Made by a program: the position numbers and the translations under genes. Below the pieces are notes generated by a model that ran no database searches, was not told the DNA's origin, and worked only from the letters and a program-made list of their open reading frames with translations. A stretch of DNA of 64,000 bases, taken from assembly GCA_963717465.1 (NCBI GenBank), contig OY970340.1, positions 2,240,001-2,304,000 of the forward strand. The letters run 5' to 3'. Numbering within the stretch: the stretch's first letter is position 1; each line of letters begins with the position of its first letter. Of this stretch, positions 22,635 to 41,108 are shown piece after piece. The stretch comes from Candidatus Bathyarchaeota archaeon. GTDB taxonomy: Archaea > Thermoproteota > Bathyarchaeia > Bathyarchaeales > Bathycorpusculaceae.

Positions 22635-22658
22635 TACAACCGCCCATATTCAAGAGAA

Positions 22659-22865
22659 TTATAAACCTAAAATGATATATTGAGTTATAATTGCGTAAAT
22701 AAATAATCCTATAAAAATGGCACCTAATAGCACAGTTAAAAACCGCATGTTCTCTGCAATTGAGGACTTTTTTAATGCTGGAGAGTATTGTGACAGAATA
22801 CTTATAATAAAAAATATTATGAAAACGATAAAGAGGCATTCAATGATAAGAGAAATATTAAGCAA
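22659..22865 (-). CDS. Small two-TM membrane protein
   Basis: Two hydrophobic helices; preceded by GGAGGT-type RBS; fills the operon gap. Confidence 0.6.
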   Translation of the reverse strand: MLNISLIIECLFIVFIIFFIISILSQYSPALKKSSIAENMRFLTVLLGAIFIGLFIYAIITQYIILGL

Positions 22866-22879
22866 TTCGCTCCTACCTC

Positions 22880-24649: not shown

Positions 24650-24921
24650 TAAACCAGCCAATTGGAAAATATATTTTTCGAAATAGTTACAATCCAGCTC
24701 ACAAGCGATTTGCCCTAATTGTCGAAGAGGCATACTACAGCTGACTTATTATTTCTTTGTACTTTGCTAATAGATTAAATACGCGAGTGAGTGCGAAAAA
24801 CTTGACTTATCGAAATAGTGAAGGACTTTAAGGTCCGATCTTTCGAGCGCGGATTTTCGTCAGCTACTAACTCATCGTCTTGCAAGATAAGGTTACTTCA
24901 ATATTTCTCGTCGAGTATAAT

Positions 24922-26070
24922 TTACTTGGGCACGCGCTCTTCGTAAAGAGAATTTATTTTTCGTGAAATGTTTTCCCATGAATAACTTTCTAATTTTTTG
25001 GAAACAGCTTTTTTGTTAAAACTGGCAAAATCATGATGGTAGAAATACCATGAAATTCCTTTTGCCAATTCTTCAGGTTCTTTAGGATTTACAAGCCGTG
25101 TATATTCGCTATTTTCAAATTGAATAGCTACTTCACGTGCACCGCCGACTTTGGTGCATATGACAGGCTTTCCAACACTCAAAGCTTCAAGCAATGTAAG
25201 CGAAAATGTTTCGAAAACAGAAGGAAGAACAAAGACATCACAGGCAGCATAATACAGTGGGAGATCTTCGGATTTTATAAACCCTAAAAACGACATTATA
25301 TCGTTTAATTCGAGCTCGTTAACCAATCTTTTTAGGGAAGCCTCTTCTTCGCCGCGTCCACCAATTAAAAATGCTATTTCAGGTATATCTTTTTTAACGA
25401 GATTTGCCGCCTCAATAAGATACTTAATGCCTTTTTGGCTGGATAACCGCCCAATCGAAAGTACAACGTACTTATACTCAACTCCCAAACGCTTTCTTAC
25501 CAAAGAACCATCAACGTTGAAATTAAAGCGGGAAGTGTCAACACCGTTCGGAATGAATACTGGTTTTGAACCGTAAACCGCCTGCCAACTCCGTTGGATA
25601 GCTGGACTGACAGCGATAAAAGTGTCTACGTATTGAGAAAGTATCTGGACTAATTTGCGATCAATATGTCTAAGTAAATCATTATGAAGTGTGCAAAATA
25701 CTTTAGAGTGTTTAATTCTTTTTGCCATGACCGCCGAAATTAGTAAAGAGGAATAACCAAATCCGTGCACATGTACAACATCGTATTTGCCCTTGCATAA
25801 ATCTCGTATAATCAAAGGAATTGTAAGAAAACTGTAAAGCCACAATAGTCGAGCATTGATGAAATTTGCAAATCGAAATTTCGGAGAAGGCGCCCATCTT
25901 GATGGAATCAATTCTTGGTTTTGTTTTAATTCGCGTTTTCTAGGGACACCGTAAAGTTGAATAAAATCAACTGTATGCCCAAATTTTACAAAGTTTTTGG
26001 ATATCTCGTAAGCGTGAATTTCTCCGCCTCCGTAGAAAAGAGGATTTTCAAGTAGCATAGCTATTTTCAA
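24922..26070 (-). CDS. GT4 family glycosyltransferase
   Basis: GGGEIH, IPNGVD, IGRLSSQKG and LPSVFETFSLTLLEALSVGKPVI. Confidence 0.9.
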   Translation of the reverse strand: MKIAMLLENPLFYGGGEIHAYEISKNFVKFGHTVDFIQLYGVPRKRELKQNQELIPSRWAPSPKFRFANFINARLLWLYSFLTIPLIIRDLCKGKYDVVHVHGFGYSSLLISAVMAKRIKHSKVFCTLHNDLLRHIDRKLVQILSQYVDTFIAVSPAIQRSWQAVYGSKPVFIPNGVDTSRFNFNVDGSLVRKRLGVEYKYVVLSIGRLSSQKGIKYLIEAANLVKKDIPEIAFLIGGRGEEEASLKRLVNELELNDIMSFLGFIKSEDLPLYYAACDVFVLPSVFETFSLTLLEALSVGKPVICTKVGGAREVAIQFENSEYTRLVNPKEPEELAKGISWYFYHHDFASFNKKAVSKKLESYSWENISRKINSLYEERVPK

Positions 26071-27296
26071 TCGCGCCGCCTCAAGAGAGCTAGATATCGT
26101 TTATAGGTGTCAGAGAATGTTTTTTCCCAGGGGTACTCGGTTAAAGCAATTTGCCTGCCGACTTTTCCCATGCTACTTCTAAGCTCCTTGTCTGATAGGA
26201 GTTTAATAATCGCTTTAGCAAGTTCTCGTGAATCATCAGGAACAACGAAACCGCCACCATTTTTTTGCACTAGCTTTGCTATTTCTGGTGCATGCCTTGT
26301 AACTATAATTGGTTTACCAGATGACCAAGCTTCAAGAAATGCCATTCCAAACCCTTCACCTTGCGTTGGAACCGTAAAAACATCGCATATTAAGTAATAA
26401 GCTGGAAGCAATTCGCTTGATACAGATCCAGTGAAAGTGACATTGTTGTGCACATTTAATTCTTGTGAAAGTTTTTCAAGATACGCCCTTTCATTTCCAG
26501 ATCCTACAAGAATGAATTGAGCTTTTGGGAATTCTTTTACAACGCCCGGTGCGGCCCTAATTAGAATATCAAGACCCTTTATTTTTTCCAGACGGCAAAC
26601 CGCAAGTATAACCTGAGAATCTGGGGGGATGACGTCGATTAAATTGGAGTTATCAGTCAGTGAACTGAATTTATCAGCATCTACACCGGGTGGAATCACA
26701 TAAATTTTGGAATCTAAACTTTTATCTCCAACCGCTTTGATTGCTAACTCTTTGAAAAATTCAGAGTTTACAATTATGCAATTAGCATTTTTTAGCACGA
26801 CTCGTCGGCAGGCATCTCCAACAACTGAGAACTTTGCGGCCGTGTCTACTAGTTCCGCAGCATGCCATGTAACTACGACTTTGATCCCAAAGATTTTCTT
26901 AATTATTACTGCAGCTAAACCTTCACCATACGGATCATGAGCATGAATTACATGAGGCCTCAAATGTAATTTCAAAAACGAGAAAAATACAAAAACAGTT
27001 GTGAATAAATATCTAAGCATCTGCGGTTTTGACAAGGTCAAACGAGCACGAAGGGAATAAAACATGGTCGATTTATTGGAAGAGTTAGTTATGTTGCCAA
27101 CATTACTGGCGATCACGTAAACTTCGTTTCCTAACTTTCGCAGTTCTTTCGCTTGATAGTAAGCGTAATACTCTTCGCCCCCGATATTCCATGGAGGAAA
27201 ACCTGGACTAAAAATCACTATCTTTATTTTTTCATCACTATTCCTTTTTACCGAAGGCAATTTTGAAATAACCACAACTCCACATAAATCCTCCAC
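26067..27296 (-). CDS. GT4 family glycosyltransferase (true start probably near 27235)
   Basis: IGGEE, IPPGVD, VCRLEKIKG and EGFGMAFLEAWSSGKP. Confidence 0.88.
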   Translation of the reverse strand: MEDLCGVVVISKLPSVKRNSDEKIKIVIFSPGFPPWNIGGEEYYAYYQAKELRKLGNEVYVIASNVGNITNSSNKSTMFYSLRARLTLSKPQMLRYLFTTVFVFFSFLKLHLRPHVIHAHDPYGEGLAAVIIKKIFGIKVVVTWHAAELVDTAAKFSVVGDACRRVVLKNANCIIVNSEFFKELAIKAVGDKSLDSKIYVIPPGVDADKFSSLTDNSNLIDVIPPDSQVILAVCRLEKIKGLDILIRAAPGVVKEFPKAQFILVGSGNERAYLEKLSQELNVHNNVTFTGSVSSELLPAYYLICDVFTVPTQGEGFGMAFLEAWSSGKPIIVTRHAPEIAKLVQKNGGGFVVPDDSRELAKAIIKLLSDKELRSSMGKVGRQIALTEYPWEKTFSDTYKRYLALLRRRD

Positions 27297-28164
27297 CCAA
27301 AAGGCAAGGCATCAACGCAAATGCTTGCTTTGTAAAATTTGGAATTCGAAACAGTTTATAGGATTCACGCGCAACTCTAGCAATAATTATAGATGGTATA
27401 AAAAACGATACGAGAACTGGGTTCATGGGAAGCCGCCCAAACATGTTTTTGTTAACAACCTGAGCTTTAAAATGCGCCTCTCCAGTTTTGCGTTCCCTAG
27501 ACAGATAGGAAGAAAAATTTAAGTCGCTTCTTATTCCGAAATGAAGAATTTTAGCTTGCGGTTCAAAAAGAATTTTGTAGCCAACATCCGTGATTTTCCT
27601 GCTTAAAAGAAAATCTTCATATATATCAAGTTCTTCATCAAAAAAATTAACGCCCTGTAAGACACTCATTTTAAAGCTGGTGTTACAAGTTGGCGCATGA
27701 TACATATAATTTCGTTTTAAGGTTTCATCAAATTCAGCAAAATTCACATAGTGAGACATAATTGAGGCTTTCGTGCTTGTAACTAAATAAGGGTCAATAA
27801 TTGAGCCTACAACTGCACCAATCGTTTTATCAGAATGGTTTGCAACGTGTAAGGACAGCCAGTTTGTATACGCTTGGCAATCAGCATCGATAAAGGCAAC
27901 AATTTCCCCTTTGGCTTTTTTAAGTCCAACGTTTCTAGCTAATCCGCGTCCTCTTCGTTTATCTACATAGCAGGTAACATTGAATTCTTCACAAATTTTC
28001 AAAGTTAGATCAGTAGATCCCCCATCTACAACGATTATTTCATAACGGTCTTTCGGGTAATCAAGAGAAACAAGCGAGGATAGGCAAGCGCCGATATACT
28101 CTGCCATGTTAAATACTACTACGATAATCGATACAAAAGGGTAATTTTTCTCACATGACTCCAA
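27238..28164 (-). CDS. GT2 family glycosyltransferase
   Basis: VSIIVVVFN, IIVVDGGSTD, ARNVGL, AFIDAD and YED. Confidence 0.9.
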   Translation of the reverse strand: MESCEKNYPFVSIIVVVFNMAEYIGACLSSLVSLDYPKDRYEIIVVDGGSTDLTLKICEEFNVTCYVDKRRGRGLARNVGLKKAKGEIVAFIDADCQAYTNWLSLHVANHSDKTIGAVVGSIIDPYLVTSTKASIMSHYVNFAEFDETLKRNYMYHAPTCNTSFKMSVLQGVNFFDEELDIYEDFLLSRKITDVGYKILFEPQAKILHFGIRSDLNFSSYLSRERKTGEAHFKAQVVNKNMFGRLPMNPVLVSFFIPSIIIARVARESYKLFRIPNFTKQAFALMPCLLGGGFMWSCGYFKIAFGKKE

Positions 28165-28194
28165 TGGTATCCTCTCAAAATCACTCGCTTATTT

Positions 28195-28980
28195 TCAGCC
28201 ACCAATTCTCTCGAATGCCCCTTCCTTATCACCTTTAAGAAAGTTTGTGAACCCTTGAAGTATACCCTTTGCCCAAACAGCGCCCCGTTTACCTTGAAGC
28301 AGCAACAGCGGAGTAATAATGGGAAGACACAGGTAAAATACTCGAATCAAAGGAGTTGTTTTGGTTAAAGAGACGGCTTGGTAAAGGCCAGTCACAGTTC
28401 GAGCTTTATATTCTGATTCTTCTTGTAAAGTGCTCGTTTTCTTTGTTTCTACCCAGCATTCTTCGCAGAAAACAACTCTGTATCCGAGTTCAGGAGCCTT
28501 AAATGAAATGTAATTGTCCTCTGTTTTACAGGGCGGAATAGGCAAAATTTGGTCGAAAATGTTTTTACGTATTAGCATTAGGTCGCCGCTAGATGTAATA
28601 GGTACAATTCGCCTAATTTTATCCATTAAAGAATAAAATTGAAGCTGAGGCCCAGAATTAACTTTAATCTTGCAAAAAACTATTCCAGCTTGTGAGCAGA
28701 TCATTTTCTCAATTGCCTTATCAAAATTAAAAATTTTGTTGTCAACGTCATTTAAACAGACAATTTTAACATTCTCGCCAATAAATTTAGCAGCATAGTT
28801 TATAGCGTCGAACTTTCCCTTTTTCTCGCGATAGATAACTTCAGGGTTACCCGTTTTTTCTGCACAGATAATTACGAATCGAACACCTAAGTTCCTTAGC
28901 TCAACTATTTTTTTGTCTACACCTTCGTAATTTCTTGCGGAGACAATGAAGCAAATTTCGTTTTTATTGATCGTCTCCAT
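28195..28980 (-). CDS. GT2-like glycosyltransferase
   Basis: GKFDAINYA, LNDVD (DxD), SGDLMLIR and TED motifs. Confidence 0.75.
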   Translation of the reverse strand: METINKNEICFIVSARNYEGVDKKIVELRNLGVRFVIICAEKTGNPEVIYREKKGKFDAINYAAKFIGENVKIVCLNDVDNKIFNFDKAIEKMICSQAGIVFCKIKVNSGPQLQFYSLMDKIRRIVPITSSGDLMLIRKNIFDQILPIPPCKTEDNYISFKAPELGYRVVFCEECWVETKKTSTLQEESEYKARTVTGLYQAVSLTKTTPLIRVFYLCLPIITPLLLLQGKRGAVWAKGILQGFTNFLKGDKEGAFERIGG

Positions 28981-29014
28981 CTTACGCCCTTCTTTTCCGA
29001 AGTTTCGAAAATGA

Positions 29015-30181
29015 CTACATCAAGACTGAGTCGTAAATTTCTCTCACTTTTAGTGAAATTTTGCTTAAGTCATAATCATTGTGGACTTTTAAGTTTCCAG
29101 CAGCGCCTAATTTTTGCCTCAATTTACGATCATGATACAACAGCGCGATTGATTCCGCTAGTTTAGCTGGGTCGTGAGTGGGAATAATTAAGCCGTCTTG
29201 ATGATCGAGAATTATTCTCGGTATCTCACCGACGTCTGTGGCAATAACGGGTTGTTTCATCGCCATTGCCTCGATTATTACAAGCCCAAAACCTTCTGCG
29301 TAGGAGGGAAGCACTGTGACATCGCTTTGCGAGTACAGTTGGGGCATCAAATAGTAAGGTCTTCCATCCAAGAATTTGAAGAATTTTTGAAGGTTTAAGG
29401 ATGCAATGCGCGCCTTTAGTTGGAAAATAAACGACGTATCTTGATAACCTGGATTAAAGTCGCCACCTTGTATTAGTAAAAACTGCAGGTCGTTCAGCTT
29501 TTGCTTATTCACTAGTATATCTCCTGCCTCAACTAATTCAAGGATACCTTTAGCTTTAACTAATCTGGCCGGGCAAAAGATTTTGAAGACCTCTTCAGAC
29601 TTTGCAGGGTATAAATCTGAGTTGAAGATTTCAAGGTCTACTCCATTAGGAAGGTAAAAAACTTGCTTTCCTATAGCATTGCCTAATAAAAGAGCACTAT
29701 CCTTGTTGTTACATATAATGGCATTGCAGTCTCTGGCGTCCTCCACATACTTATTTATGTTATCATTGTTGATTTGCTCATGAAATGTTATTACCACAGG
29801 TTTTCCCTTAACGAATTTCCAGCCCTTGAATCTTATTCCTGTTTCTATTTTTCTAAAAGATGGCTCAAAGCCTCTTGTAAGTCCTTGAACATGTATGAGA
29901 TCGAATTTCTTCTTTACCTTATTCAGGTAATAAACATCTGCCGTTTGTTGTATCCCAAAAACTAAATGATACTTAAATCCTGAATCCTCAGAGGTAGAAA
30001 GAAAACGGTTTCTAAGAATGCTGAATTGGCCTTCTGAATCATAAATTATTGGAGAACTCCCATAAGTGTAGACTGTTACAGAAGTGTTTTTTCTGGAAAG
30101 AAACTTGACCAGCGAAGATACATAGCTTTCTGTCCCGCCCCAACGTGGGAAAAAGCTATGTGTTAATATTAGTACATTCAT
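29015..30181 (-). CDS. GT4 family glycosyltransferase
   Basis: WGGTE, LPNGVD, ARLVKAKG and LPSYAEGFGLVIIEAMAM. Confidence 0.9.
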   Translation of the reverse strand: MNVLILTHSFFPRWGGTESYVSSLVKFLSRKNTSVTVYTYGSSPIIYDSEGQFSILRNRFLSTSEDSGFKYHLVFGIQQTADVYYLNKVKKKFDLIHVQGLTRGFEPSFRKIETGIRFKGWKFVKGKPVVITFHEQINNDNINKYVEDARDCNAIICNNKDSALLLGNAIGKQVFYLPNGVDLEIFNSDLYPAKSEEVFKIFCPARLVKAKGILELVEAGDILVNKQKLNDLQFLLIQGGDFNPGYQDTSFIFQLKARIASLNLQKFFKFLDGRPYYLMPQLYSQSDVTVLPSYAEGFGLVIIEAMAMKQPVIATDVGEIPRIILDHQDGLIIPTHDPAKLAESIALLYHDRKLRQKLGAAGNLKVHNDYDLSKISLKVREIYDSVLM

Positions 30182-30198: not shown

Positions 30199-31176
30199 TT
30201 AATTAGCCGTTGCTTTAGAACGACGAGAATTGCTTATGCCGAAAAAATGCAGAAAGTGAGAATACAGAAAACGGGGTTTATAATTGAAATTTTCGATACC
30301 CCACTGAACGCTGTCTAAATAAATCTTATCAACCAGTTCTTGAGTTGGCTTAAGATTTTTTATAGTACTCTTTAATGGAGGTGTAACCTCGATTAGACCG
30401 GCTTTTTTGAAATAGCTTATTCTATCAATGAAAAGCGAGAATTCTTTGAATAGTCTTTTTTGCTCTTGCTCACCGAGGTCCTCTGTAGGAACTAGTACTT
30501 TTGGATTGCCTTTGAAGTAAATTGAGTCCCAATGTCCTTGATTGATCAGGGATGTTGGATGTAAAAGTAGTACAGATGTGCCATTTAAAAGACTCATGCG
30601 AAGCGATCTAGTTAATGTTCTTAGATTAAATGGGTAGCCGTCTGGCGGGCAGAGAACTATTGGGAAAGGGTAAAATTGTATTTCTTTATAGAATGATGGA
30701 CCTGCTTTTAGACGAGTTGAAAAGTCGTATCTGATTCCAAGTTTTACGAGTGCCTCTAACATGGGTGGGGACCAAGCGAATCCTGGCGCTCTGAAGGAAA
30801 CGATGGATTTTTTTGGAAATAGTTCTTTGAGGGATAATAGTCCCCCCGGACCTAAAATTTCACCAGTAGTTGTTGAAATAAGTGAGGTTTCTCTTTTCAG
30901 GGATATTTCGACTGATTCACAGTAATCTTCAACATCCGTATATTCTATAATTAGAGGTCTCACGGAATGAGCTGCTGAATGGTACCCAATCTCATGATTG
31001 GCCAAACGTTGTTTTAGTTCGGGATAAAATTTCAATTTATCTGCCACGTGACCCGTTATAAAAAATAAACCTTTCAGTTCCGCAGCATCCAGTGCATCAA
31101 GTATCTGTTTCAAGATAAGAAAAGATTTTGGTTTAACGACATCCTCAACATCAAATGTTAAAAATATGTCTGGCAT
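30199..31176 (-). CDS. Polysaccharide deacetylase (CE4/NodB-like)
   Basis: LTFDVED, HEIGYHSAAH, SFRAPGF, YDFS and LLHP. Confidence 0.85.
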   Translation of the reverse strand: MPDIFLTFDVEDVVKPKSFLILKQILDALDAAELKGLFFITGHVADKLKFYPELKQRLANHEIGYHSAAHSVRPLIIEYTDVEDYCESVEISLKRETSLISTTTGEILGPGGLLSLKELFPKKSIVSFRAPGFAWSPPMLEALVKLGIRYDFSTRLKAGPSFYKEIQFYPFPIVLCPPDGYPFNLRTLTRSLRMSLLNGTSVLLLHPTSLINQGHWDSIYFKGNPKVLVPTEDLGEQEQKRLFKEFSLFIDRISYFKKAGLIEVTPPLKSTIKNLKPTQELVDKIYLDSVQWGIENFNYKPRFLYSHFLHFFGISNSRRSKATAN

Positions 31177-31419: not shown

Positions 31420-32037
31420 TTAAGAACCTCCTCCGCAATATTCCCCGTTCAGCCACTTCACCATGCAAAAGTGTTCAACCTCAACTTGAGATTTGCCTGA
31501 AAATACTGTGACGTCTTTGTGTGGGTTTGTTGGGTCAGGCATAATCACCTTGTTCTTTAAGGGCAATCTTTTAAAATCCTCAATCCTGTGGGAATCCCAG
31601 ACGTGAGGATCGGGATTAGCGTTTCCTTTCTCATCTCCGACCAGCATAACAAACAAATTTTCCAGATTCACCCTTCGTGCTCTTCGAGTCCATTTAACTC
31701 GTGCCTCCTCTTCAGAATGATAGTGCAGGAAACAAATTTCAACATCCTCGAGTACACCTACCGGATAAGGATGCCCACGAAGGCTCATGTGCTCCTTAAC
31801 AGTAGGGTGTTTTGAGACGCCTACAAACTGTATTAGAATGTTGAGATAATGCTCAAGGTTTGAAAGAAATTTAATATAGTCCTCTAAGAAAAAGAACAAG
31901 CCAACTGTTGGTGTAGTATATTGTAAACCCAATTCTTTGTATCCAAATATTCCGGCTCCGCAATTATTGGATATTATTGTAAAATCCTTGTTCTTTAGCC
32001 TATTCGCCGTAATGGCGGTGCAACTTTGCATCTCCAC
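31420..32037 (-). CDS. DUF1919 family protein
   Basis: FTIISNNC, YTTPTVGLF, YPVGVL, FLHYHSEEEARVKWTRR. Confidence 0.82.
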   Translation of the reverse strand: MEMQSCTAITANRLKNKDFTIISNNCGAGIFGYKELGLQYTTPTVGLFFFLEDYIKFLSNLEHYLNILIQFVGVSKHPTVKEHMSLRGHPYPVGVLEDVEICFLHYHSEEEARVKWTRRARRVNLENLFVMLVGDEKGNANPDPHVWDSHRIEDFKRLPLKNKVIMPDPTNPHKDVTVFSGKSQVEVEHFCMVKWLNGEYCGGGS

Positions 32038-32103: not shown

Positions 32104-32941
32104 TTACAACTTTAAAATTATGGTATTTAACAATTCATCAGTAGAGCGCGTGCGTTCACCAGTAATACCCTTACTGTAAGTACATACTATTCTACATATG
32201 TTACTGTATTTTTGAGAAATGTTTATGCTTTCGTTCTTGGATGAAATAATAAAATCTCCATTTTCAGTCGAAAAATTCCATTGATGCAGTCCATTATAAT
32301 TTTGTATACGTGCTTCATTAGGTCTATGAATCATTAAGATATAGCAATTTTTTTTGACTACTTTTATCATTTCTAGTATTGCTTTTTCCGGAGAATAAGA
32401 ATGGTCTATACAATTACATGCAAAGACCAAGTCAAACGAGTTTTTGGGAAACATCTCTGTGAGTTTTTCGGCGTCAGATTTCTTCGTTTGAATTAGTGGA
32501 GAAACACAGTATTTCTTCATAAGATTGTCGTATTCGTCGAGCTAGAGGGTCAACAGCAGTGATATTGATTTTTAATCCTTCGTGTACTTTCCCCAGACGG
32601 GTGAGAGGGCCTGCACCTACATCCAGAATTTCAACTTGGCTCTTATTTTGAGGGAGTAACTTAACGACTGCTTCCTGTAGTGGAAAAGTGGGATCTAATC
32701 TAGCGTTATAATCTTGTGGCTTCTCTAAACCCTTGGTTTCAAAATAATCGTTCCAAAAGGACACTTCAGACTTTACAGCTGTTTTCCATCTTAATTTCGA
32801 ATTTAAAGGTACGCGTATTCCCGTTTTATCTTCAAAAACATAAATAGTAAAACCCACAAATCCAAGGTCTCTTAATCCTGCTATTACATTTGCTATTGCA
32901 TTCTTGGCTTTTTTCACATAAGCATATTTCAAGATTTTCAC
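32104..32941 (-). CDS. Class I SAM-dependent methyltransferase, split by an indel near 32535
   Basis: ILDVGAGP, AVDPLA, DAEKL and FDLVFACNCIDH. Confidence 0.8.
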
Positions 32942-33478: not shown

Positions 33479-34465
33479 TTAACGTGGCTCCTTGTGAACA
33501 AAGAGGGATGCAGCTTGTAAGGCGTTGTATGTGATTATCATGTCTGCTCCGGCTCTTCGGATTGAGTTCAATGATTCCATTACTAGTGCGCTCTCTCTAA
33601 TTTTGGTATTCTTGCAAAGTAATTTTATAAAGGCATATTCTCCGCTAACTTGGTAAGCAGCAATAGGAGTAGTAGGATAACTTTGTTTAACCCTAAGTAT
33701 GAGGTCTAAATTCACTAATGCTGGCTTCACTATAACGATGTCTGCACCCTCATCCAAGTCAAGGCTTACTTTTTGCATAAACAATTTATCATTAATGACA
33801 TCGCTTCTAAATTTGCTGGAGTCGACACAGTTTCTTTGAGCTTTTGAGTCCGCCATTGCTTCATAGAAAGGTTGGAAAAGGCAGCTGTTAGTTTTAATGT
33901 ACGTCATGATGGCTGTGTTATTAAGTCCTTGGTCATCTAGAGCTTCGCGGATATGTTTAACTTGGCCGTCGCACATAGCGGCTGGTGCAATAACGTCTGC
34001 TCCAGCTTGAGCGTGAACAACGGATATTTTGGCCAGCATCTTTGCAGTCTTCTCACTAAGGACTTGCCCCCTCTCGCTATAGACACAGAAATCGTCCTTT
34101 GTGTAGTCGCATAAACAAACATTTGATATTAGGACGAGTTTATCTCCAAACTTTTTCTTGAGCATACTAAATATCTTGCTGTGAAAGTTGTTTTCTTTTA
34201 GTGCTACTGAACCATCAGAGTCTCGGTGAGCTATAACGCCAAAAACTAGAATGCCAGGGATGCCTAAATCTACTGCTTTGTTACATACCTCGACAGCTTC
34301 GGTTAAGGATAGGTAGTTTTGGCCATCCATAGATGGGATTGGGAAGCCTTTACCGTCTTCTCTGACAAAAATTGGATAAATAAAATTGTTAGAAGTTAGG
34401 GAGGTGGGCTGTATTAGACTTAACAGGGATCTTGATTGCTTAAGGCGAAAAGTCGCATTCATCAT
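33479..34465 (-). CDS. hemB: Porphobilinogen synthase (ALA dehydratase) homolog, divergent
   Basis: IYPIFV, CLCDYTKDDFC (Zn), AGADVIAPAAMCDGQV, GADIVIVKPA, AYQVSGEY and RRAGADMIITY. The lid region is atypical. Confidence 0.85.
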   Translation of the reverse strand: MMNATFRLKQSRSLLSLIQPTSLTSNNFIYPIFVREDGKGFPIPSMDGQNYLSLTEAVEVCNKAVDLGIPGILVFGVIAHRDSDGSVALKENNFHSKIFSMLKKKFGDKLVLISNVCLCDYTKDDFCVYSERGQVLSEKTAKMLAKISVVHAQAGADVIAPAAMCDGQVKHIREALDDQGLNNTAIMTYIKTNSCLFQPFYEAMADSKAQRNCVDSSKFRSDVINDKLFMQKVSLDLDEGADIVIVKPALVNLDLILRVKQSYPTTPIAAYQVSGEYAFIKLLCKNTKIRESALVMESLNSIRRAGADMIITYNALQAASLFVHKEPR

Positions 34466-34531
34466 AATTCACCTTTTTCTACGCTATGGACAGCTTACTT
34501 TTAAATTCTTTTATTTTTAAATATTAATTTG

Positions 34532-35881
34532 TTATAAGAAATTTTTTGCGATACTCAGGAAAAGGAAAGTTGAAGTCCCAACAGCATTTGTTAGAAGGTT
34601 TTCTATGCTGAATCTGGAGACAGATGAGTAATACTGCGGATAAAGGATGTCGCCCTTTGGATCAATCTTGCCTTCTTTAACGGCCAAGTCATACAGTTCC
34701 GTATGGGGATAAATTCGCATTTTAGTAAATCCAACATATGCGAGCTTCTCTTTAAGCTCCACTAACATTCTTGGAACAATATTAACAAGTCCAGCTACAT
34801 GCGAAGCATTATTCGAAGGCAAATCAATCATGAAGTTAAAGCCCACCTTAACGTTTTCTAAAGCTTTAAAATAGGAAATTGAGGCATTTATTTGACTAAC
34901 AGTCAGGTTTCTCTTAAGCATCACTAAGGCTTCATCTGAGGCACCATCCGCAGAAAAATTCAATAGTCGACATCCAGATTTAACTGCGTCAGCCGCGAAA
35001 CGTGCATTAAGAAAAGCTGGATGAGCATCAGTACTCCATTCTATCTCAACTTTTCGCTCTAAAAGTTCATGGACTATTTCTTGAGCATGCTCAAATGGAT
35101 AGTTGAAGATGGAGCTAACAAAAAATAAATTCGTTACTCCGTATTCACTTACTAACTTTTCAACTTCGTCAACGATTTTTCTAGGCGATCTCAGTCTAAG
35201 GTTGCAGCCGGAAATGTGATAGTTGGGACAGAACATGCATTTGAAAGCGCAACCTCTTTGAGTCTGCACTGAGAGGGCAAAGGAGTGTTTATCGTACTTT
35301 TTTATATCGAAGAATTCTCTGGAAGGTATCGGTAAAGAATTGAAATCTTCAAAAATTTTTGGAGTGAAAATTAATTTACCATTTTTTTTGAAAACTAAAT
35401 TATTTACTCTTTCAGGAGTCTTCATTTTTTTAAGAAGCTGTGCAAATGAATGCTCGCCTTCAAAAACTAAGCCGAAGTCGATTTCAGGATTTCCATCCAT
35501 GACTTCTTTCGCGAAAAGTGAAAAGCCGGAGCCGCCAACGACGAGTTTGCATGTGGGTAGTGTATTTTTTATCATCTTAACTGTTGACACAAATGTTGGA
35601 TAGTACCATTTGTGAACAGTTGAAATCGCGCTATCAGTATTTCTTAGTGATAATCCTACAACATCCGGTTTTATTTTCTCCAGCATGCTTGGAAGCTTTT
35701 CTAATGGATTTTGGGAATCATCAACATTGGGATCCCAACAATAAACTTCATGATCTTTTTTAATCATGGATGCGATGGATGCTAGACCGATGGGAAAAAC
35801 AAGTGGCGTAGCATCCGATAATTTTTTACCAATGTACGATTGGCAAAGAAAAACGCGCATGACTCCACAACTCAAACTCAA
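34532..35881 (-). CDS. Cobalamin-dependent radical SAM enzyme
   Basis: N-terminal B12-binding domain (FPIGLASIA, PDVVGLSLRNTD, VVGGSGFS, EGE) plus TQRGCAFKCMFC (CxxxCxxC). Confidence 0.9.
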   Translation of the reverse strand: MSLSCGVMRVFLCQSYIGKKLSDATPLVFPIGLASIASMIKKDHEVYCWDPNVDDSQNPLEKLPSMLEKIKPDVVGLSLRNTDSAISTVHKWYYPTFVSTVKMIKNTLPTCKLVVGGSGFSLFAKEVMDGNPEIDFGLVFEGEHSFAQLLKKMKTPERVNNLVFKKNGKLIFTPKIFEDFNSLPIPSREFFDIKKYDKHSFALSVQTQRGCAFKCMFCPNYHISGCNLRLRSPRKIVDEVEKLVSEYGVTNLFFVSSIFNYPFEHAQEIVHELLERKVEIEWSTDAHPAFLNARFAADAVKSGCRLLNFSADGASDEALVMLKRNLTVSQINASISYFKALENVKVGFNFMIDLPSNNASHVAGLVNIVPRMLVELKEKLAYVGFTKMRIYPHTELYDLAVKEGKIDPKGDILYPQYYSSVSRFSIENLLTNAVGTSTFLFLSIAKNFL

Positions 35882-36720
35882 ATTTTTTTAGAGACAAAAA
35901 CTGCTTGCAATAAAAACCTATTTTGATAAAGTCTGATAATACCTATTGGTACGCCGCTAATCTTAATTTTCCTTAACAATATTATTCTTAATAAATTCAG
36001 TAAGCTGTGATTATTTTTCACTATCTCAAGCGCGTTTAAATCTGCAGTTAAAACGACGTTCGCTTGCGAAAAATCTGTTTCGCTAAGTTCAATATTATTC
36101 TTGTTGATATTAATAAGAAACTTGGGCAGTCCCTTGATGTTAAAGAGGACTCGCATTTTATGGTTTGAAGCCATATTAACCTGCTTTGATTTTTTGAAGG
36201 AATCGATTTTTTCTTGTATGGTCTTTATGTTGAGAAGCTTGTAATATGTAATCACATTGTTTTGGATTGGAATATAATCAAATGAAGAATTAAAAAAGTT
36301 CTTGTTCAGCCGAAGGTCGCCAGTTATCATCATACTAGCTACTATCTCTTTCTTTTTAATTACATCGCCCGTTGAGGATCTCAAAAAACGTAAAAGATTT
36401 GTTCCAACACCGCTGCCTCTATAGGCAGGATCAACAATAAGATCAGCAGCAAATATGGCATTAACATTTAAAGTATCAGTAAGTCTTAAATTGATTGGAA
36501 TCCAATGATTGCATCCAATTATCTTTCCGTTTGTTTCTGCAACTGCAATAAATGATGCTTCAAAATTTGGGTTTGATTTATATTTCCAATCCCAGTACTC
36601 CTTACTCTGAGTTTCTTCAAGTGTAGCGTCTAAAAGTGATACAAGCGCTTTAACCGCTTGTTCATCATCACTTACAAAGGCCCTGCAACGATAATTTTCC
36701 AACTTTTTCGGTTCGTTCAA
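35878..36720 (-). CDS. GNAT N-acyltransferase with C-terminal SCP2-like domain
   Basis: YWDWKY..NP, motif A VDPAYRGSGVG and C-terminal KIKISG. Overlaps neighbours by TTGA junctions. Confidence 0.8.
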   Translation of the reverse strand: MNEPKKLENYRCRAFVSDDEQAVKALVSLLDATLEETQSKEYWDWKYKSNPNFEASFIAVAETNGKIIGCNHWIPINLRLTDTLNVNAIFAADLIVDPAYRGSGVGTNLLRFLRSSTGDVIKKKEIVASMMITGDLRLNKNFFNSSFDYIPIQNNVITYYKLLNIKTIQEKIDSFKKSKQVNMASNHKMRVLFNIKGLPKFLININKNNIELSETDFSQANVVLTADLNALEIVKNNHSLLNLLRIILLRKIKISGVPIGIIRLYQNRFLLQAVFVSKKI

Positions 36721-37520
36721 CCATAATCACCAAGTTGGAGGCACCAATCAGGTTTAAGTTGCATAGATGATAAAAACCTAAGCACACTATAAAATTTCCA
36801 AAAAGGCCTTATCTTAAGTTTAGAAAGAATGAAAGCCTTGGAAGGATCCAAGAGTCCAAAGATTAAACATGAGAAAATTGATTCAGTCGTTTCCAAGTAA
36901 ATTTCGTTAATAATATTATCATTATTATCCTCGCTTGCAACTTGAACTTTGCCATCGTTAACAGTTAAGACCACATTTTTTTGGGCTGACGACTTGTCGT
37001 TTCTTAGCTTAATGGTGAGTTTTTCGTTAATTTGGCTTTCTAAATGCTTACTGGTTATTATTAACGTTAATAGTTTTTGATAGTCAAATATGCGCAAACA
37101 AACCAGCGGGGGCGAGTAAGTGCTGAAACCCAATTTTCTACAATTTTCATTTAATAAATCATCCTTTATTGGAGCATTAAACGAAATCGAATCTGCATTG
37201 ATTTCGTGTAAGTAGCTTATTGCGTTGTTTAGTAGAAGTAAGATTATTTTTTCTCCATCTTTTTCTGAATCGTAGCAGAACTCCCATATTTTACCAGATT
37301 TTCCAATTACAGTGTAACCGACAATTTCGGCTTTTTCATTTTCAACTATTAATATTTTGTCAGGTTCAACATCTGGCCGTTGCAAACACGACCAACGCCA
37401 ATATTCAACTGTTTTAGTTGGAAAGCCACCGTATTTTCCAAATTCCTTGTTGAAGAGACTTAAAATTTTTGATTCGTCGCCTTCCTTGAACGTTCTGAGG
37501 GCATATTTGATTTCAGTCAA
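36717..37520 (-). CDS. GNAT-fold protein with C-terminal SCP2-like domain
   Basis: LRTFKEGDE, YWRW...RPD, IVGY and KLGF; SCP2-like tail (AFILSKLKI). No clear motif A. Confidence 0.65.
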   Translation of the reverse strand: MTEIKYALRTFKEGDESKILSLFNKEFGKYGGFPTKTVEYWRWSCLQRPDVEPDKILIVENEKAEIVGYTVIGKSGKIWEFCYDSEKDGEKIILLLLNNAISYLHEINADSISFNAPIKDDLLNENCRKLGFSTYSPPLVCLRIFDYQKLLTLIITSKHLESQINEKLTIKLRNDKSSAQKNVVLTVNDGKVQVASEDNNDNIINEIYLETTESIFSCLIFGLLDPSKAFILSKLKIRPFWKFYSVLRFLSSMQLKPDWCLQLGDYG

Positions 37521-37645
37521 CTAATTCAAACTCATTATAATGTGATTGCTAAAGGATAACTGTTTGTTAAATCAACTATTGCAGGATTAAGTAGCAATTA
37601 AGATAGAGGCGATTCATGTATAATTATGGGGAAGCTTTTGTTTTA

Positions 37646-38938
37646 TTAGTTGATGACTAAGCTTTTCTTCATTTTGTCCTCGAAAACGCCGATTGGAACG
37701 AATATAGCATCATCTAATGTGAGCGTAACACCAAGCTTTGTCTTCAAAAGTTCATGAAGAGATTCCCTTATTAATTGTTGTTTGCTAACACTCAAATCGC
37801 CGTTTGTTTCCGCTTTAATTATAAACCTCTGTTGTGGAGAACTTTTGTCAATAATTATTTGGCATCTGCCTGTTAACTCGGGAAAATTAACCAATATTGC
37901 TTCCACTCTGCTAGGAAATACTGATACGCCTTTTACTTTTACCATGAAGTCTTTTCGGTCAATATCTGTTCCGATTTTAGGGTGACACATGCCACAACTG
38001 CATTGTTGAAAACCATAACAGTCAACAATGTCACGTGATGAATACCTGATTATGGGTGAGGCTTCCCTTTGCAAACTTGTGATTACAAGCTCGCCTCTTT
38101 CACCATCAGATAAAGTCTCCATTGTTTGGGGGTCCACTACTTCAACTAAATACTTATCAGCCCAAATATGATGCCCTCCAGCGCCCTCTTCGCAGTAAAC
38201 TGAGAGCCCTGGGAATTCAGTGGCGCCATAATCGAGGAAAATGTTTTCGTAACCTAACTCGTTTTTCAAGCGTTCTCTTTGCTGTAAAGTTGGTTTTTCA
38301 GAGACGCAGATACCGGCTCTTAAGGATGATTTACTTAAATCTTGACCGGTTTGTTTAGCTACTTCTGCGATGCGTAAATGGTAGTTTGTTACACCATAGA
38401 TAATAGTCGTGTTAAGATTTTTAATTAGTCTTATTTGACGTTCCGTATCTCCAGGTCCTACGGGTATTTCGCATATTCCCATCTTATTTAGACCCCAATG
38501 AATTGACCAAGCGCCTTGGAATAAGCCGTACAATGCGGTAACTTGAACCTTGTCTTTTGAAGTAATACCGTGAAACGTTAATTTTCTAGCAGATGCTTCA
38601 GCAATATTTTCAACGTCATTTCTACTGTGCGCTATAGTCATAGGAACTCCTGTTGTTCCGCTTGTTTGCCTAATTGTTAGAACTTTATCAAACGGTACAG
38701 CGAGCACATCTTGAAAATTATATTCCATTTCAGTTCTCGTGGTTATTGGAATTTTACGAATATCTTCAAGAGTTACAATGTCAGAAGGCGTTATGCCTGC
38801 TTTCTTGAGTTTTTCATGGTAAAATTTGCTGTTGGAATATACATGGGTTAATTCTTGTTTTAGTAATTTTACCTGAAGCTCTTTCAATTCTTTTATAGTG
38901 GCGCCCTGAATCTTTGGAGCCCAAAATTGCTTTTTCAT
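37646..38938 (-). CDS. Phenylacetate-CoA ligase (PaaK) family adenylate-forming enzyme, divergent substrate pocket
   Basis: TSGTTG, DYGATE, GELVITSLQREASPIIRY, CSCG and KGVSVFPS. Confidence 0.85.
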   Translation of the reverse strand: MKKQFWAPKIQGATIKELKELQVKLLKQELTHVYSNSKFYHEKLKKAGITPSDIVTLEDIRKIPITTRTEMEYNFQDVLAVPFDKVLTIRQTSGTTGVPMTIAHSRNDVENIAEASARKLTFHGITSKDKVQVTALYGLFQGAWSIHWGLNKMGICEIPVGPGDTERQIRLIKNLNTTIIYGVTNYHLRIAEVAKQTGQDLSKSSLRAGICVSEKPTLQQRERLKNELGYENIFLDYGATEFPGLSVYCEEGAGGHHIWADKYLVEVVDPQTMETLSDGERGELVITSLQREASPIIRYSSRDIVDCYGFQQCSCGMCHPKIGTDIDRKDFMVKVKGVSVFPSRVEAILVNFPELTGRCQIIIDKSSPQQRFIIKAETNGDLSVSKQQLIRESLHELLKTKLGVTLTLDDAIFVPIGVFEDKMKKSLVIN

Positions 38939-39050
38939 TTCGCATCCGCCCAAGCTCGAACTTTAGTATAACAATGAAATATGGAAATATGACTGTCCCT
39001 TTAGTTATCTATTAGAAAACAATTGTTTTTGCGTTAAATGGTTAACCAGT

Positions 39051-39833
39051 TTAGAGGCGGCTTGAAAGAAGTTGAAGTAGACTCTTAAAGCCGTCCGAAT
39101 AGCGAATTTTGGATTTTCCAACTTTACGATAAGCGTAACCAATAGGCACCTCGCAGAACCTTGAGCCGTTTTGCAAGCTTTTAGAAGTCATTTCAATTTC
39201 AACTGCGAAACCGCTCTCTGTTAGCTCGAAGCCATCAACGATGTAACGCTTAAAAGCTTTTGAACCAGTCATTATGTCGGTTATGGGCGCATTGTAAAGC
39301 ATTCGAGCAGTTGCAGATAATAATCTGTTACCCATGTAGTGTGAAAAACTCATGCCTTTAGTTTTTCCGACAAATCTTGAACCGAAGACAACATCAGCTT
39401 TATTGTCCAGAATTGGCTTGACGAGCTCAGGGATCGAATCAGGAGAATACTCCATATCAGCGTCTTGAACTACAACAACTGTTCCTGAAGAATTGCAAAA
39501 GCCAGTTTTAAGCGCTGCACCCTTGCCCATATTCTTGGCATGACGGATGTATTTAATGTATGGAAAAGAAGTGAAGGCAGCAATCTCTTCCTGCGTATTA
39601 TCAGTAGAACCATCGTCCACAACAATGATTTCAACGGTGTTTGGAGACCAATTAATCTCCGTTAGCATCTTAAGCACCAGCGCTATGCTTTTCTCTTCGT
39701 TGTAAACTGGAACAACAACACTGATATCTGGAAGAGTCAAATTGTCAATAAAGGCTGAAGAAATACGTTCATTGTTATCGCTTTGTATTAGCAAGTGTTT
39801 TTCCCCTTGGCTTCTATATAATCGCTTACTCAA
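39051..39833 (-). CDS. GT2 DPM1-like (polyprenyl-phosphate) glycosyltransferase
   Basis: VVVPVYNEE, VDDGSTD, NMGKGAAL, QDADMEY, VFGSRF and TDIMTG. Confidence 0.88.
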   Translation of the reverse strand: MSKRLYRSQGEKHLLIQSDNNERISSAFIDNLTLPDISVVVPVYNEEKSIALVLKMLTEINWSPNTVEIIVVDDGSTDNTQEEIAAFTSFPYIKYIRHAKNMGKGAALKTGFCNSSGTVVVVQDADMEYSPDSIPELVKPILDNKADVVFGSRFVGKTKGMSFSHYMGNRLLSATARMLYNAPITDIMTGSKAFKRYIVDGFELTESGFAVEIEMTSKSLQNGSRFCEVPIGYAYRKVGKSKIRYSDGFKSLLQLLSSRL

Positions 39834-39940: not shown

Positions 39941-40252
39941 TTATGGGAGGTTTTGCAGTAACCTAGCAAGTTTTGCGTGCTCAGAATCCAACACTTCAAG
40001 CAGTTGTTGCGCCTTAACGGATCGTTCATAAAATTCATAGTACTGCCTGAGAAACTCGCGCCCACTTTCAGTTAGTAAATATACTGAGCCGTTAATTTGA
40101 ATTAAACCCGCACTAATCGTCATATCCAAGTATTTCTCCAGCAATTTAAAACTCAAATTCGCGGCAATCATAATTCGCGTCTTGTTAGAACCCAAATTTG
40201 TAGCCTCCAGAACAGACGCAACAATCCGTAACCTATCACGATTCTTACCCAT
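39941..40252 (-). CDS. Archaeal winged helix-turn-helix regulator (HTH_45/DUF4364-like)
   Basis: RDRLRIVASVL...KTRIM..ANLS...KYL...YLLTESG. Confidence 0.85.
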   Translation of the reverse strand: MGKNRDRLRIVASVLEATNLGSNKTRIMIAANLSFKLLEKYLDMTISAGLIQINGSVYLLTESGREFLRQYYEFYERSVKAQQLLEVLDSEHAKLARLLQNLP

Positions 40253-41108
40253 GAAAATACCAGCTAAAACTTTAAACAAAGCCAGTTAAGCACCAAGCAG
40301 AGACCCCTCTATCCAAATCCCTTCTTGACAGAAGCGGACATGAACAAGAGAACTCTAACTATGCTTCAAACCCCTAACACTTATCCTCCACTTGTGAAGA
40401 AGCATGATTCAATAGAACTTCTTTTAAACTTTTCTATTACACAATAGGAACTGCAATAAAAGACAGCAATTGCAAAAGCTCTCACAGAAAAGCCCAAGCT
40501 AATAGCAAACGACCAATTGTAAACCAAGCTAGAAAACTGCACAACTTTATTGCTTATCGAAATTAGCATTGAAACACCCTTCTTCGCAATTTATAGCAAA
40601 AAACAACTACGAAAACGAAATTTAAACCATATCTCTGGAAATATAACATATCAGCAAAAAAGAAAAGCACCAATATTAAGTTACATTATGAAACACTGGA
40701 AAGCCAAACAAGGCCTAAGTGCAATGAAAAAACAAGATAATTTTAAAACAAATGGCAGCACTTACTGAAAAACAAAGCAGTTCTTAAAAAATTACAAAGA
40801 TCTGACAAGCTCAAGAAGAGGATGGTCAATTAGTTTTCTCTTCTTAGTTTAAATTTTTCTAGCTGCTAGCACATAACATATTTTGGTTGTTCTTAATTGT
40901 CAGGGGGCACAATAGAGCGATACCCAAACCGTTTTTTACTCGCGCATCTGCTTCTCCATTAATGCATACAGCCAAATATTAGAATACAGAAAAAGGAAAC
41001 TCATATGAATTCTTAAATTTTAATATATGCGAAGTTTTAAAAACCATTTTGTAGACTTTAATAAAACTGAGGGAAAGGAAAGCGCAAAAATCTAAGATAG
41101 AAACTTCA

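Follow-up and report, generated by a model that had tools for sequence, protein, structure and literature searches.

A porphobilinogen-synthase paralogue with a remodelled active site in a conserved Bathyarchaeia gene module that may decorate surface glycans with an aminolevulinate-derived group

The stretch of DNA that we analysed, hereafter the window, comprises 64,000 nucleotides of contig OY970340.1 (positions 2,240,001 to 2,304,000; assembly GCA_963717465.1) from a Candidatus Bathyarchaeota archaeon. On its minus strand, at 33479-38953, it carries five co-oriented open reading frames (ORFs), which encode a PaaK-like coenzyme A (CoA) ligase, two Eis-like proteins that we call GNAT_A and GNAT_B, a B12-dependent radical S-adenosylmethionine (SAM) enzyme, and HemB2, the product of a second hemB gene. 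These genes are transcribed in the order HTH_45 regulator, AglJ-like GT2 glycosyltransferase, ligase, GNAT_A, GNAT_B, B12 radical-SAM enzyme and HemB2, and are followed, after a gap, by a split methyltransferase gene, a DUF1919 gene, a CE4 gene and then a run of GT4 and GT2 genes with a hexapeptide acyltransferase. The features of the island are these:

39941..40279, minus strand: winged-helix regulator of the HTH_45 family at the head of the block (PF14947, 75 bits)
39051..39833, minus strand: AglJ-like GT2 glycosyltransferase of the polyprenyl-phosphate sugar transferase type (PF00535, 121 bits)
37646..38953, minus strand: adenylate-forming CoA ligase of the PaaK family, 435 residues (AMP-binding and AMP-binding_C_2 domains)
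36717..37520, minus strand: GNAT_A, 267 residues, an Eis-like GNAT with an SCP2-like C-terminal domain (assigned by fold; no Pfam match)
35878..36720, minus strand: GNAT_B, 280 residues, a GNAT acyltransferase with a C-terminal extension (Pfam Acetyltransf_1/7/9)
34532..35881, minus strand: cobalamin-dependent (class B) radical-SAM enzyme, 449 residues (B12-binding and Radical_SAM domains)
33479..34465, minus strand: HemB2, a porphobilinogen-synthase paralogue with a remodelled A-site, 328 residues (PF00490, 307 bits)
32104..32941, minus strand: class I SAM methyltransferase, present as two ORFs that overlap by 47 nucleotides (the second covers Methyltransf_11 positions 42-94)
31420..32037, minus strand: DUF1919 protein (PF08942, 152 bits)
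30199..31176, minus strand: divergent CE4 (polysaccharide deacetylase-like) protein (PF01522, 27.6 bits, N-terminal part only)
20787..30181, minus strand: glycan-assembly genes (GT4, partial GT2-like ORF, GT2, GT4, GT4, a 617-residue ORF of no family, hexapeptide acyltransferase, GT4)
8134..9374, minus strand: extra hemA-like (glutamyl-tRNA reductase) gene in three frames (GlutR_N and Shikimate_DH domains)

An original prediction, made from the letters of the window, had described five co-oriented genes of which three are joined by TTGA overlaps and which are flanked by glycosyltransferase and deacetylase genes. This description is accurate: two TTGA start/stop overlaps couple the genes for GNAT_A, GNAT_B and the radical-SAM enzyme, with GNAT_B overlapped at both ends, the AglJ-like GT2 gene lies upstream, and the CE4 gene and the GT4/GT2 run lie downstream. 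(The AglJ-like protein scores 123 bits against the NCBIfam AglJ model, under its cut-off of 325.) The 537 nucleotides directly 3' of HemB2 (32942-33478) contain no ORF of at least 50 residues, and a search of this gap for remnants of PIG-L, GFO, DUF362, SPASM and HemL2 genes returned nothing below E=0.05; it is probably where the transcription unit that runs from the ligase to HemB2 ends. Beyond it, the first of the two methyltransferase ORFs carries an 'ILDVGAGP' stretch that we take to be the SAM-binding motif, and the split in this gene reflects either a real frameshift or an assembly error.

HemB2 belongs to the porphobilinogen-synthase (PBGS) family, scoring above the family cut-offs both for PF00490 (307.4 bits; cut-off 24.6) and for NF006762 (305.2 bits; cut-off 297), and aligning over its full length with HemB proteins of solved structure (5lzl from Pyrobaculum, at 4.4e-61, as well as 1w1z and 1b4e, the latter from E. 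coli). The genome, which consists of one 3.05-Mb contig, has two PF00490 matches, the stronger of which (417 bits) is the canonical copy. Because this canonical copy lies elsewhere in the genome, in a hemA-hemB-hemL run with hemC alongside (G000:C1:1573259-1577359, where G000 is the window's genome, other G-numbers are genomes and L-numbers are fetched loci), HemB2 is a paralogue and not a stray housekeeping gene. The two copies are only 39-40% identical, and the label 'divergent HemB' that HemB2 had been given is thus correct. Its closest database relatives are 62-81% identical and spread over more than 120 listed clusters, most of them nameless; those with names are called 'porphobilinogen synthase', several of them coming from Bathyarchaeota or Bathyarchaeia metagenome-assembled genomes and one from an Acidobacteriota one.

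What sets HemB2 apart is its active site, which we surveyed in 196 HemB2-type and 103 canonical sequences, the latter drawing on 80 genome-contig loci that are all canonical hemB at 35-42% identity; gapped or truncated rows fill the remainder of the counts, and the 196 are not independent lineages, since the database proteins and the metagenome loci partly share their origin. Human residue numbers were transferred by means of the alignment of HemB2 with canonical sequences together with the residue spacing in the genome's own canonical copy, HemB1. In human ALAD, passages of two sources place Arg209 and Arg221 in the A-site and Ser279, Tyr318, Lys199 and Lys252 in the P-site (PMC13465085, PMC9631992). 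HemB2 keeps both Schiff-base lysines (Lys199 and Lys252) as K191 and K247, with lysine in 193 and 190 of the 196 sequences and gaps in the rest. It also keeps the zinc-binding cysteine triad (Cys122/124/132) as C117, C119 and C127 in 196 of 196, and the P-site pair Ser279/Tyr318 as S274 and Y313 in 188 of 196, the remainder being gaps or, once, threonine.

None of the A-site ligands of porphobilinogen synthase (Arg209, Arg221 and Gln225, the last of which we presume to be an A-site residue) is retained in the HemB2 clade. The position of Arg209 (201 in HemB2) is occupied by phenylalanine in 170 sequences, lysine in 12, tyrosine in 11 and arginine in none, whereas all 103 canonical sequences have arginine; that of Arg221 (216 in HemB2) is occupied by serine in 175, proline in 12, glycine in 4, threonine in 1 and, again, never by arginine, which is present in 102 of the 103 canonical sequences; and that of Gln225 (220 in HemB2) is arginine in all 191 ungapped sequences, as against glutamine in 102 of 103. 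At seventeen positions each group has a fixed residue of its own; among these are Tyr205 and Tyr224, both of which have become phenylalanine in HemB2, an invariant aspartate just before the CxC motif (position 115) that is now asparagine, and an invariant serine that is now alanine (position 162). The lid has gained a 3-residue insertion. Judged by sequence, the A-side carboxylate pocket is less polar, both of its arginines having been lost. This remodelling argues against plain porphobilinogen synthesis: because the A-site carboxylate residues are missing from 196 of 196 sequences, HemB2 probably does not carry out a plain condensation of two free molecules of aminolevulinate (ALA).

The HemB2-type sequences also stand together in phylogenies, in which the position of the root is not fixed. 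All 187 of those included in a FastTree tree of 290 sequences (limited to those of at least 290 residues, which dropped nine shorter ones) form a single clade whose stem measures 1.59 substitutions per site, and all 26 of those among the 62 rows sampled for a quick IQ-TREE search lie on the same side of a branch whose SH-aLRT value is 100. In the latter tree, the canonical HemB of G000 sits on a long terminal branch (1.25).

The distribution of HemB2 is narrow. Scores of a HemB2 hidden Markov model over 401 genomes of the class were bimodal, with 578-651 bits in six genomes (G000, G329, G232, G394, G247 and G025, the last with two copies) and at most 332 bits for all other matches; a seventh carrier, G379, has the N-terminal 88 residues of HemB2 at a contig end. 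In a phylum-wide sample of 401 genomes, matches at E <=1e-130 came from G000 and G025 only. Every carrier falls within the window's order, and HemB2 was not found in the other same-genus genomes searched (24 in one search and 39 in another). The two G025 copies (L015, L016) are 61-62% identical to the window copy and each lies beside GFO/IDH/MocA and DUF362 genes on a short contig. As a separate observation from the two same-genus searches, 12 of 24 and 11 of 39 genomes gave no hemB match of any kind, and tetrapyrrole capacity in the window's genus seems patchy.

We compared gene neighbourhoods by BLAST of all window ORFs, together with Pfam and NCBIfam scans. The original prediction had named a failure of hemB to be co-conserved with the other four genes among the results that would count against it, and we found the opposite: HemB2, the ligase, both GNATs and the B12 radical-SAM enzyme occur together in metagenome loci and in the genomes G329, G232, G247, G379 and G394, being spread over split contigs in the last of these. 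The recurrence of this set in one genome and contig after another shows that more than chance is at work. In G329 (contig G329:C9, the same contig as L170), the genes lie on a single strand and begin with HTH_45, two small ORFs, GNAT_A, GNAT_B, the ligase, HemA2, HemL2, an epimerase and a GT2; there follow a radical-SAM protein of the SPASM type, the B12 radical-SAM enzyme, a second SPASM-type protein, CE4, GT2 and YdjM, and then a UDP-sugar dehydrogenase, an epimerase, HemB2, PIG-L, GFO, a protein of no assigned family and GT2. The HTH_45 protein of this syntenic cluster, three ORFs 5' of GNAT_A, is 44% identical to that of the window. Rearranged versions occur in G232 and in G247, the latter enlarged by a UbiD-family enzyme and by another B12 radical-SAM enzyme, and a compact version in G379 (contig C10) has the order GNAT_A, GNAT_B, ligase, HemA2, HemL2, two B12 radical-SAM enzymes and HemB2. 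Synteny extends to G399, where the ligase, the GNATs, HemA2 and HemL2 share one contig.

Several of these associations can be counted. Strong GNAT_A matches (302-394 bits) were found in seven of the 401 class genomes, including G000, and a contig-end fragment was found in G025; of these eight genomes, seven have HemB2, the exception being G399. The ligase gene lies directly 5' of hemA2 in all ten metagenome loci that have DNA at that point, as it does in G329, G232, G247, G394, G379 and G399, and the CE4 protein of the window is 42-47% identical to HemB2 neighbours in G329, G232 and G025. A metagenome search with a HemB2-specific DNA motif matched 113 stretches, from which 80 loci were fetched; 70 of these encode a HemB2 of at least 55% identity, and the other ten are chance matches. 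In 19 loci the sequence upstream of HemB2 extends for at least 8 kb, and among these we found HemA2 and HemL2 in 11 each, the ligase in ten, GNAT_A and GNAT_B in seven each, the B12 radical-SAM enzyme in eight (plus two of a second type), CE4 in 12 and SPASM-type radical-SAM proteins in eight; among the 34 with at least 3 kb downstream, we found PIG-L in 17, GFO/IDH/MocA in 19 and DUF362 in 11. These neighbours are, with one exception, co-oriented with HemB2, and the B12 radical-SAM gene is directly 5' of it in 15 metagenome loci. Of the 39 HemB2 loci that span 8 kb or more, 37 have a GT2- or GT4-like ORF (31 have two or more), whereas none of the ten chance-match loci has one, and UDP-sugar dehydrogenases and epimerases are frequent around the clusters.

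Two accessory genes deserve separate mention. The UbiD-family (de)carboxylase gene of G247 lies beside a B12 radical-SAM gene (L131:15184-16386), and another lies between the B12 radical-SAM and HemB2 genes of metagenome locus L144 (8489 onward). Enzymes of the UbiD family have aromatic and heteroaromatic acids as substrates, and we count their presence in favour of the pathway proposed below. The genome of the window contains two GFO/IDH/MocA-DUF362 pairs (G000:C1:1857854-1872407) that are 46-58% identical to those found 3' of HemB2 in relatives, and because they lie far from the window, such pairs seem to be sugar-modifying units that can stand apart from the module.

If HemB2 served the synthesis of tetrapyrroles, hemC and hemD would be expected alongside, and in three carriers they are not: G329 (100% complete), G232 (92%) and G025 (99%) have HemB2 and no match to a canonical hemB, to hemC (PF01379) or to hemD (PF02602). 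A gene that goes undetected in a metagenome-assembled genome may still be there, but these three genomes are near-complete and are alike in missing canonical hemB, hemC and hemD. Each of the three has a glutamyl-tRNA reductase (GluTR), which in G329 and G232 is encoded on the same contig as HemB2, 9-13 kb away, and the G329 copies of HemA2 and HemL2 pass the equivalog models for their functions (364 bits against a cut-off of 209.55 for TIGR01035, and 581.5 against 527.3 for TIGR00713). We therefore regard the dedicated supply of ALA by the C5 route, through GluTR and glutamate-1-semialdehyde aminomutase (GSAM), in the module of these relatives as genuine, on the strength of the gene families present. 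The other three genomes, G000, G247 and G394, have a separate canonical hem set, which in G247 and G394 is full and accompanied by a second hemA.

The situation in the window itself is different. Its extra hemA (8134-9374) has internal stops, and its tblastn pieces fall in frames -3, -1 and -2; it is 36-40% identical to both the HemA1 and the HemA2 types and lies 24 kb from HemB2, between the gene for a 924-residue surface protein and some small ORFs. Possibly this is the island's own ALA-supply gene, broken or mis-assembled. No relative of hemL2, PIG-L or the SPASM-type radical-SAM gene occurs within the island, and PIG-L was not found in the window or in the G000 genome at E<1e-15. The housekeeping hemA and hemL of G000 could supply ALA, and because the island's extra hemA reads in three frames, ALA would probably come from that pair here. 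The window thus holds a reduced form of the module. Because the ligase, the two GNATs, the radical-SAM enzyme and HemB2 are contiguous, with CE4 nearby, these are suggested to be its functional core.

Some other features of the region were noticed. A DUF1616 protein is split into two adjacent ORFs (17205-18314, minus strand). Taken with the hemA read in three frames and with a completeness of 88% for a genome that is one contig, the split genes hint at assembly indels or ongoing gene decay. Among sequencing runs, a search listed none of RNA and one of DNA, which contains a small share (0.15) of the sampled words. Just beyond the island, at 41716-42717 on the plus strand, lies the gene for a thermopsin-like Peptidase_A4 with an N-terminal acidic repeat region.

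The remaining proteins of the core each resemble known enzymes. The ligase has the two domains (PF00501 and PF14535) and the TSGTTG P-loop (at residue 97) of the PaaK-type fold, and its best PDB match is PaaK itself (4r1l, 1.8e-75), but it scores 277.8 and 276.3 bits against the two NCBIfam PaaK equivalogs, under their cut-offs of 700 and 646.3, and so does not reach the phenylacetate-specific level; the ligases of G329, G232, G247 and G394 share 51-58% identity with it. The radical-SAM enzyme has the domains of class B (PF02310 and PF04055) and a CAFKCMFC motif (CxxxCxxC, residues 211-218), and falls outside the equivalogs that it resembles most, BzaD (251.9 bits, cut-off 450) and rSAM_ladder_B12 (220.5 bits, cut-off 360), as does its G329 orthologue (301.7 and 230.4 bits, respectively). 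BzaD is an aromatic C-methylase.

For the GNAT pair we relied on AlphaFold2 models built from small alignments, with predicted local distance difference test scores (pLDDT) of 84 for GNAT_A and 68 for GNAT_B. In Foldseek searches, Eis-family acetyltransferases lead the matches of GNAT_A (3n7z, 2ozg, 6b0u and 4jd6, over about 260-290 columns of 380-396 target residues), and the model of GNAT_B matches GNAT and Eis-family folds, with Eis-family entries among its top matches. The GNAT domain is confirmed by Pfam in GNAT_B and assigned by fold in GNAT_A, of which one orthologue has a weak PF00583 match, and the two proteins are distant paralogues (27% identity over 66 residues, E=4e-4). Neither, at 267 and 280 residues and with one GNAT domain fewer, has the three-domain GNAT-GNAT-SCP2 architecture of Eis (about 400 residues). 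Because of the Eis fold matches and a weak SCP2 sequence match in GNAT_A (E=0.03), 'GNAT-SCP2', as these proteins had initially been termed, is a fair description at the level of the fold.

A possible explanation for this combination of genes is that the five form the core of a conserved Bathyarchaeia module which likely puts an ALA-derived, probably pyrrole-type, acyl group on an amino sugar of a surface glycan, and which does not take part in haem or B12 synthesis; we hold this reading with a confidence that stands at about even. Because HemB2 travels with the ligase, the GNATs and the B12 radical-SAM enzyme in genomes where the rest of the haem and B12 pathway is missing, a pyrrole-type sugar decoration is the likely product, rather than a haem-like cofactor. 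The pathway might proceed as follows. ALA would come from the GluTR and GSAM of the module or, in G000, from the housekeeping pair; the PaaK-like ligase would convert ALA or a close derivative to its CoA thioester; and the GNAT pair would move the acyl group to a sugar amine freed by the CE4 or PIG-L deacetylase. The A-site of HemB2, devoid of its arginines and more hydrophobic, would then bind this neutral, tethered aminolevulinyl group while the intact P-site binds free ALA, such that the enzyme would close a porphobilinogen-type pyrrole that remains attached through its acetyl arm. The B12 radical-SAM enzyme would finally C-methylate the product. The order of the steps that follow ALA supply is the least certain part of this scheme.

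We prefer a derivatised A-side substrate because both A-side arginines are gone from every member of the clade while the P-side ligands are kept, and because three genomes (G000, G247 and G394) hold a canonical HemB beside HemB2. The original prediction, which is partly supported, had likewise ended with a pyrrole on amino sugars, or else on proteins or lipids. Its link to ALA has become stronger (in relatives hemA2 stands beside the ligase gene and that for GSAM is usually next, and three carriers lack hemC, hemD and a canonical hemB), but its order of steps is hard to reconcile with the loss of the A-side carboxylate ligands for ALA in 196 of 196 clade members. Taken to its furthest, our scheme would make HemB2, supplied by a GluTR and a GSAM of its own, the first member of the PBGS family to work outside tetrapyrrole synthesis, closing a pyrrole on a CoA- or sugar-tethered aminolevulinyl group, and would predict bathyarchaeal surface glycans that bear a methylated porphobilinogen-type monopyrrole; in this specific form we advance it tentatively and consider it rather doubtful.

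Several observations weigh against the decoration of glycans by a tethered pyrrole. The lid of HemB2 has gained conserved basic residues, namely R220 (invariant where ungapped), K218 (172 Lys and 16 Arg of 196) and R211 (Arg in 176 of 196), which could rebuild a carboxylate site, so that ordinary porphobilinogen synthesis is still conceivable; and HemB2 scores above the NCBI cut-off for porphobilinogen synthases (305 vs 297). The window has no intact hemA2 or hemL2 and none of the PIG-L, GFO and DUF362 genes that are often 3' of HemB2 elsewhere. Conversely, G399 (87% complete) has the ligase, the GNATs, HemA2 and HemL2, and HemB2 was not found in it. Of the 19 metagenome loci with at least 8 kb upstream, hemA2 was unseen in eight and the ligase in nine, although these absences are soft because the flanks end at 10 kb and the G329 ligase is 14.5 kb from HemB2. 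Moreover, some metagenome loci and database proteins have the same origin, and related genomes are not independent of one another. Finally, the substrates, product, acceptor and step order of the module are all ones that we infer.

The nearest alternative is the order of events in the original prediction, according to which HemB2 makes a free porphobilinogen-like acid from two molecules of ALA, which is then methylated by the B12 radical-SAM enzyme, converted to a CoA ester by the ligase and transferred by the GNATs to a deacetylated amino sugar. This order draws on the same gene set and co-conservation as the one that we favour, and it is in keeping with the PBGS equivalog score of HemB2, with the activation of aryl-acetate-type acids by relatives of PaaK (to which the ligase has its PDB matches) and with the proximity of the radical-SAM enzyme to BzaD, an aromatic C-methylase and the closest NCBIfam model. 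With two free ALA molecules as substrates, however, the replacement of Arg209, Arg221 and Gln225 in all 196 sequences has no explanation, the presence of a canonical HemB beside HemB2 in G000, G247 and G394 argues against a redundant enzyme, and the ligase is tied to hemA2 and not to hemB2. We think this order unlikely, but worth keeping in view. It is far harder to see HemB2 as an ordinary second porphobilinogen synthase, a tetrapyrrole isozyme (e.g., a metal-sparing one) that lies in the island by chance. Automatic annotation does name the whole clade 'porphobilinogen synthase', HemB2 passes both PF00490 and NF006762, and zinc-sparing hemB paralogues are reported for bacteria (PMC2770081). 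But three carrier genomes are without hemC and hemD, the glycan context and the co-occurrence with ligase and GNATs are conserved, and the clade has a long stem and is tightly conserved within; with the Cys3 zinc site kept in HemB1 and HemB2 alike, we rejected the zinc-sparing idea, and the isozyme in general strikes us as very improbable indeed.

The other two alternatives concern the product. The module could make a soluble or lipid-linked small molecule, such as a mycothiol- or bacillithiol-like glucosamine conjugate, a pigment or an antibiotic, in place of a decoration on a surface glycan. A BshB1-like PIG-L deacetylase gene directly 3' of HemB2 in 24 metagenome loci would suit such a product, as would the general logic of glycosyltransferase, deacetylase, ligase and GNAT, which resembles the mycothiol pathway, and the small number of glycosyltransferase genes near the G247 cluster. 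We nonetheless find a small molecule quite unlikely in view of the surroundings of HemB2: GT2/GT4-like ORFs accompany it in nearly all of the longer loci (37 of 39, with two or more in 31), UDP-sugar dehydrogenases or epimerases are often adjacent, and the block in the window lies between the AglJ-like GT2 and five more glycosyltransferase genes. Alternatively, HemB2 might apply its Schiff-base and zinc machinery to another amino-ketone, for example a keto-sugar deacetylated and oxidised through PIG-L and GFO/IDH/MocA enzymes, in a condensation with ALA or in an aldolase-like reaction. Its A-site is remodelled, PIG-L and GFO genes follow it in 17 and 19 of 34 loci, and both G025 copies lie among GFO genes on short contigs that have no ligase. 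Yet there is no PIG-L or GFO gene near HemB2 in G000, whose GFO-DUF362 pairs are 380-415 kb off, and in the compact loci L144, L150 and G379 there is a direct link between HemB2 and hemA2, ligase, GNAT and radical-SAM genes; we would also reason that extra steps would be needed to aromatise a pyrrole that is fused to a hydroxylated carbon of a sugar. A keto-sugar substrate is therefore improbable in our judgement.

A module of the kind that we favour, in which an ALA-derived pyrrole is attached to a glycan amino sugar, has partial counterparts among known systems. Canonical HemB or ALAD (PF00490) shares with HemB2 the two lysines that form Schiff bases, the Cys3 zinc site, and Ser279 and Tyr318 or their equivalents in the P-site. 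The two differ in the A-site and lid and at the 17 fixed positions, and HemB2, which nearly always stands among glycan genes, occurs in three genomes where neither hemC nor hemD was found. As an ALA-derived unit with its own ligase, the nearest working analogy may be the C5N-unit pathway of actinomycetes, which, in the passages describing it, consists of a cyclising ALA synthase, an aminolevulinate-CoA ligase and an amide synthase and includes no PBGS-family enzyme (PMC4525017). There, too, ALA supply and a CoA ligase stand side by side in a specialised cluster, and the ring derived from ALA is amide-linked. The Bathyarchaeia module, which is archaeal and not actinomycete, departs from this scheme in making its ALA by GluTR and GSAM, in having a PBGS-family enzyme where the C5N pathway has a cyclising ALA synthase and GNATs where it has an amide synthase, and in the PaaK type of its ligase; no ALA synthase or amide synthase was found in the clusters that were annotated. 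In moenomycin, the C5N ring is attached to the uronic acid of a sugar.

Clorobiocin and coumermycin provide a precedent for the other end of the pathway, since they carry a 5-methylpyrrole-2-carboxyl group on noviose that is C-methylated by the B12 radical-SAM enzyme CloN6, the pyrrole being made from proline on a carrier protein. Our module may likewise place a pyrrole acyl group on a sugar with C-methylation by a cobalamin radical-SAM enzyme, but we saw in it no carrier protein, no proline-type dehydrogenase and no counterpart of the clorobiocin acyltransferase, and its radical-SAM enzyme is nearest to the BzaD/'ladder' family. The Eis proteins (GNAT-GNAT-SCP2; 3n7z, 2ozg, 6b0u and 4jd6), to which GNAT_A is closest in fold and which are also among the top matches for GNAT_B, are longer (about 390-400 residues against 267-280), have one more GNAT domain and are not tandem paralogues with overlapping stop and start codons. 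Mycothiol and bacillithiol are built by a glycosyltransferase, a PIG-L deacetylase, a ligase and a GNAT. Relatives of the window match this logic with a BshB1-like PIG-L gene 3' of HemB2 and with glycosyltransferases, ligase and GNATs; unlike it, the ligase here is of the PaaK type where mycothiol-type pathways use a cysteine ligase, G000 and the window have no PIG-L match at E<1e-15, and nothing in the module implies thiol chemistry.

The module is real and conserved and, as far as we can tell, has not been described before. Its proteins are firmly assigned to their families, and the chemistry is a proposal. We found no description, in the open-access literature, of a PBGS paralogue in glycan loci or of hemA-hemL-hemB without hemC and hemD in Bathyarchaeia, in agreement with the initial statement that nothing of this kind had been reported. 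In genome-based reconstructions, GluTR, GSAM and PBGS serve as markers of the capacity for haem, B12 and F430. Here the three are encoded inside glycan loci and the two steps that come next are missing, so in these archaea such a reconstruction would wrongly score part of a tetrapyrrole pathway. No second function is known for the textbook enzyme PBGS, and the HemB2 clade, with its conserved remodelled A-site, offers a direct route to understanding how a Knorr-type pyrrole synthase changes its substrate; with its 5-8 genes, the module is small enough to be put to the test by expression. The finding matters for tetrapyrrole enzymology and for archaeal glycobiology alike. If the glycans do bear a methylated porphobilinogen-type monopyrrole, it would define a new class among glycan decorations and its pathway would be a new way of making monopyrrole natural products, and if the product of the module is indeed a pyrrole on a glycan, archaea that are highly abundant in sediments would display a chemically reactive, and possibly coloured or metal-binding, group on their surface.

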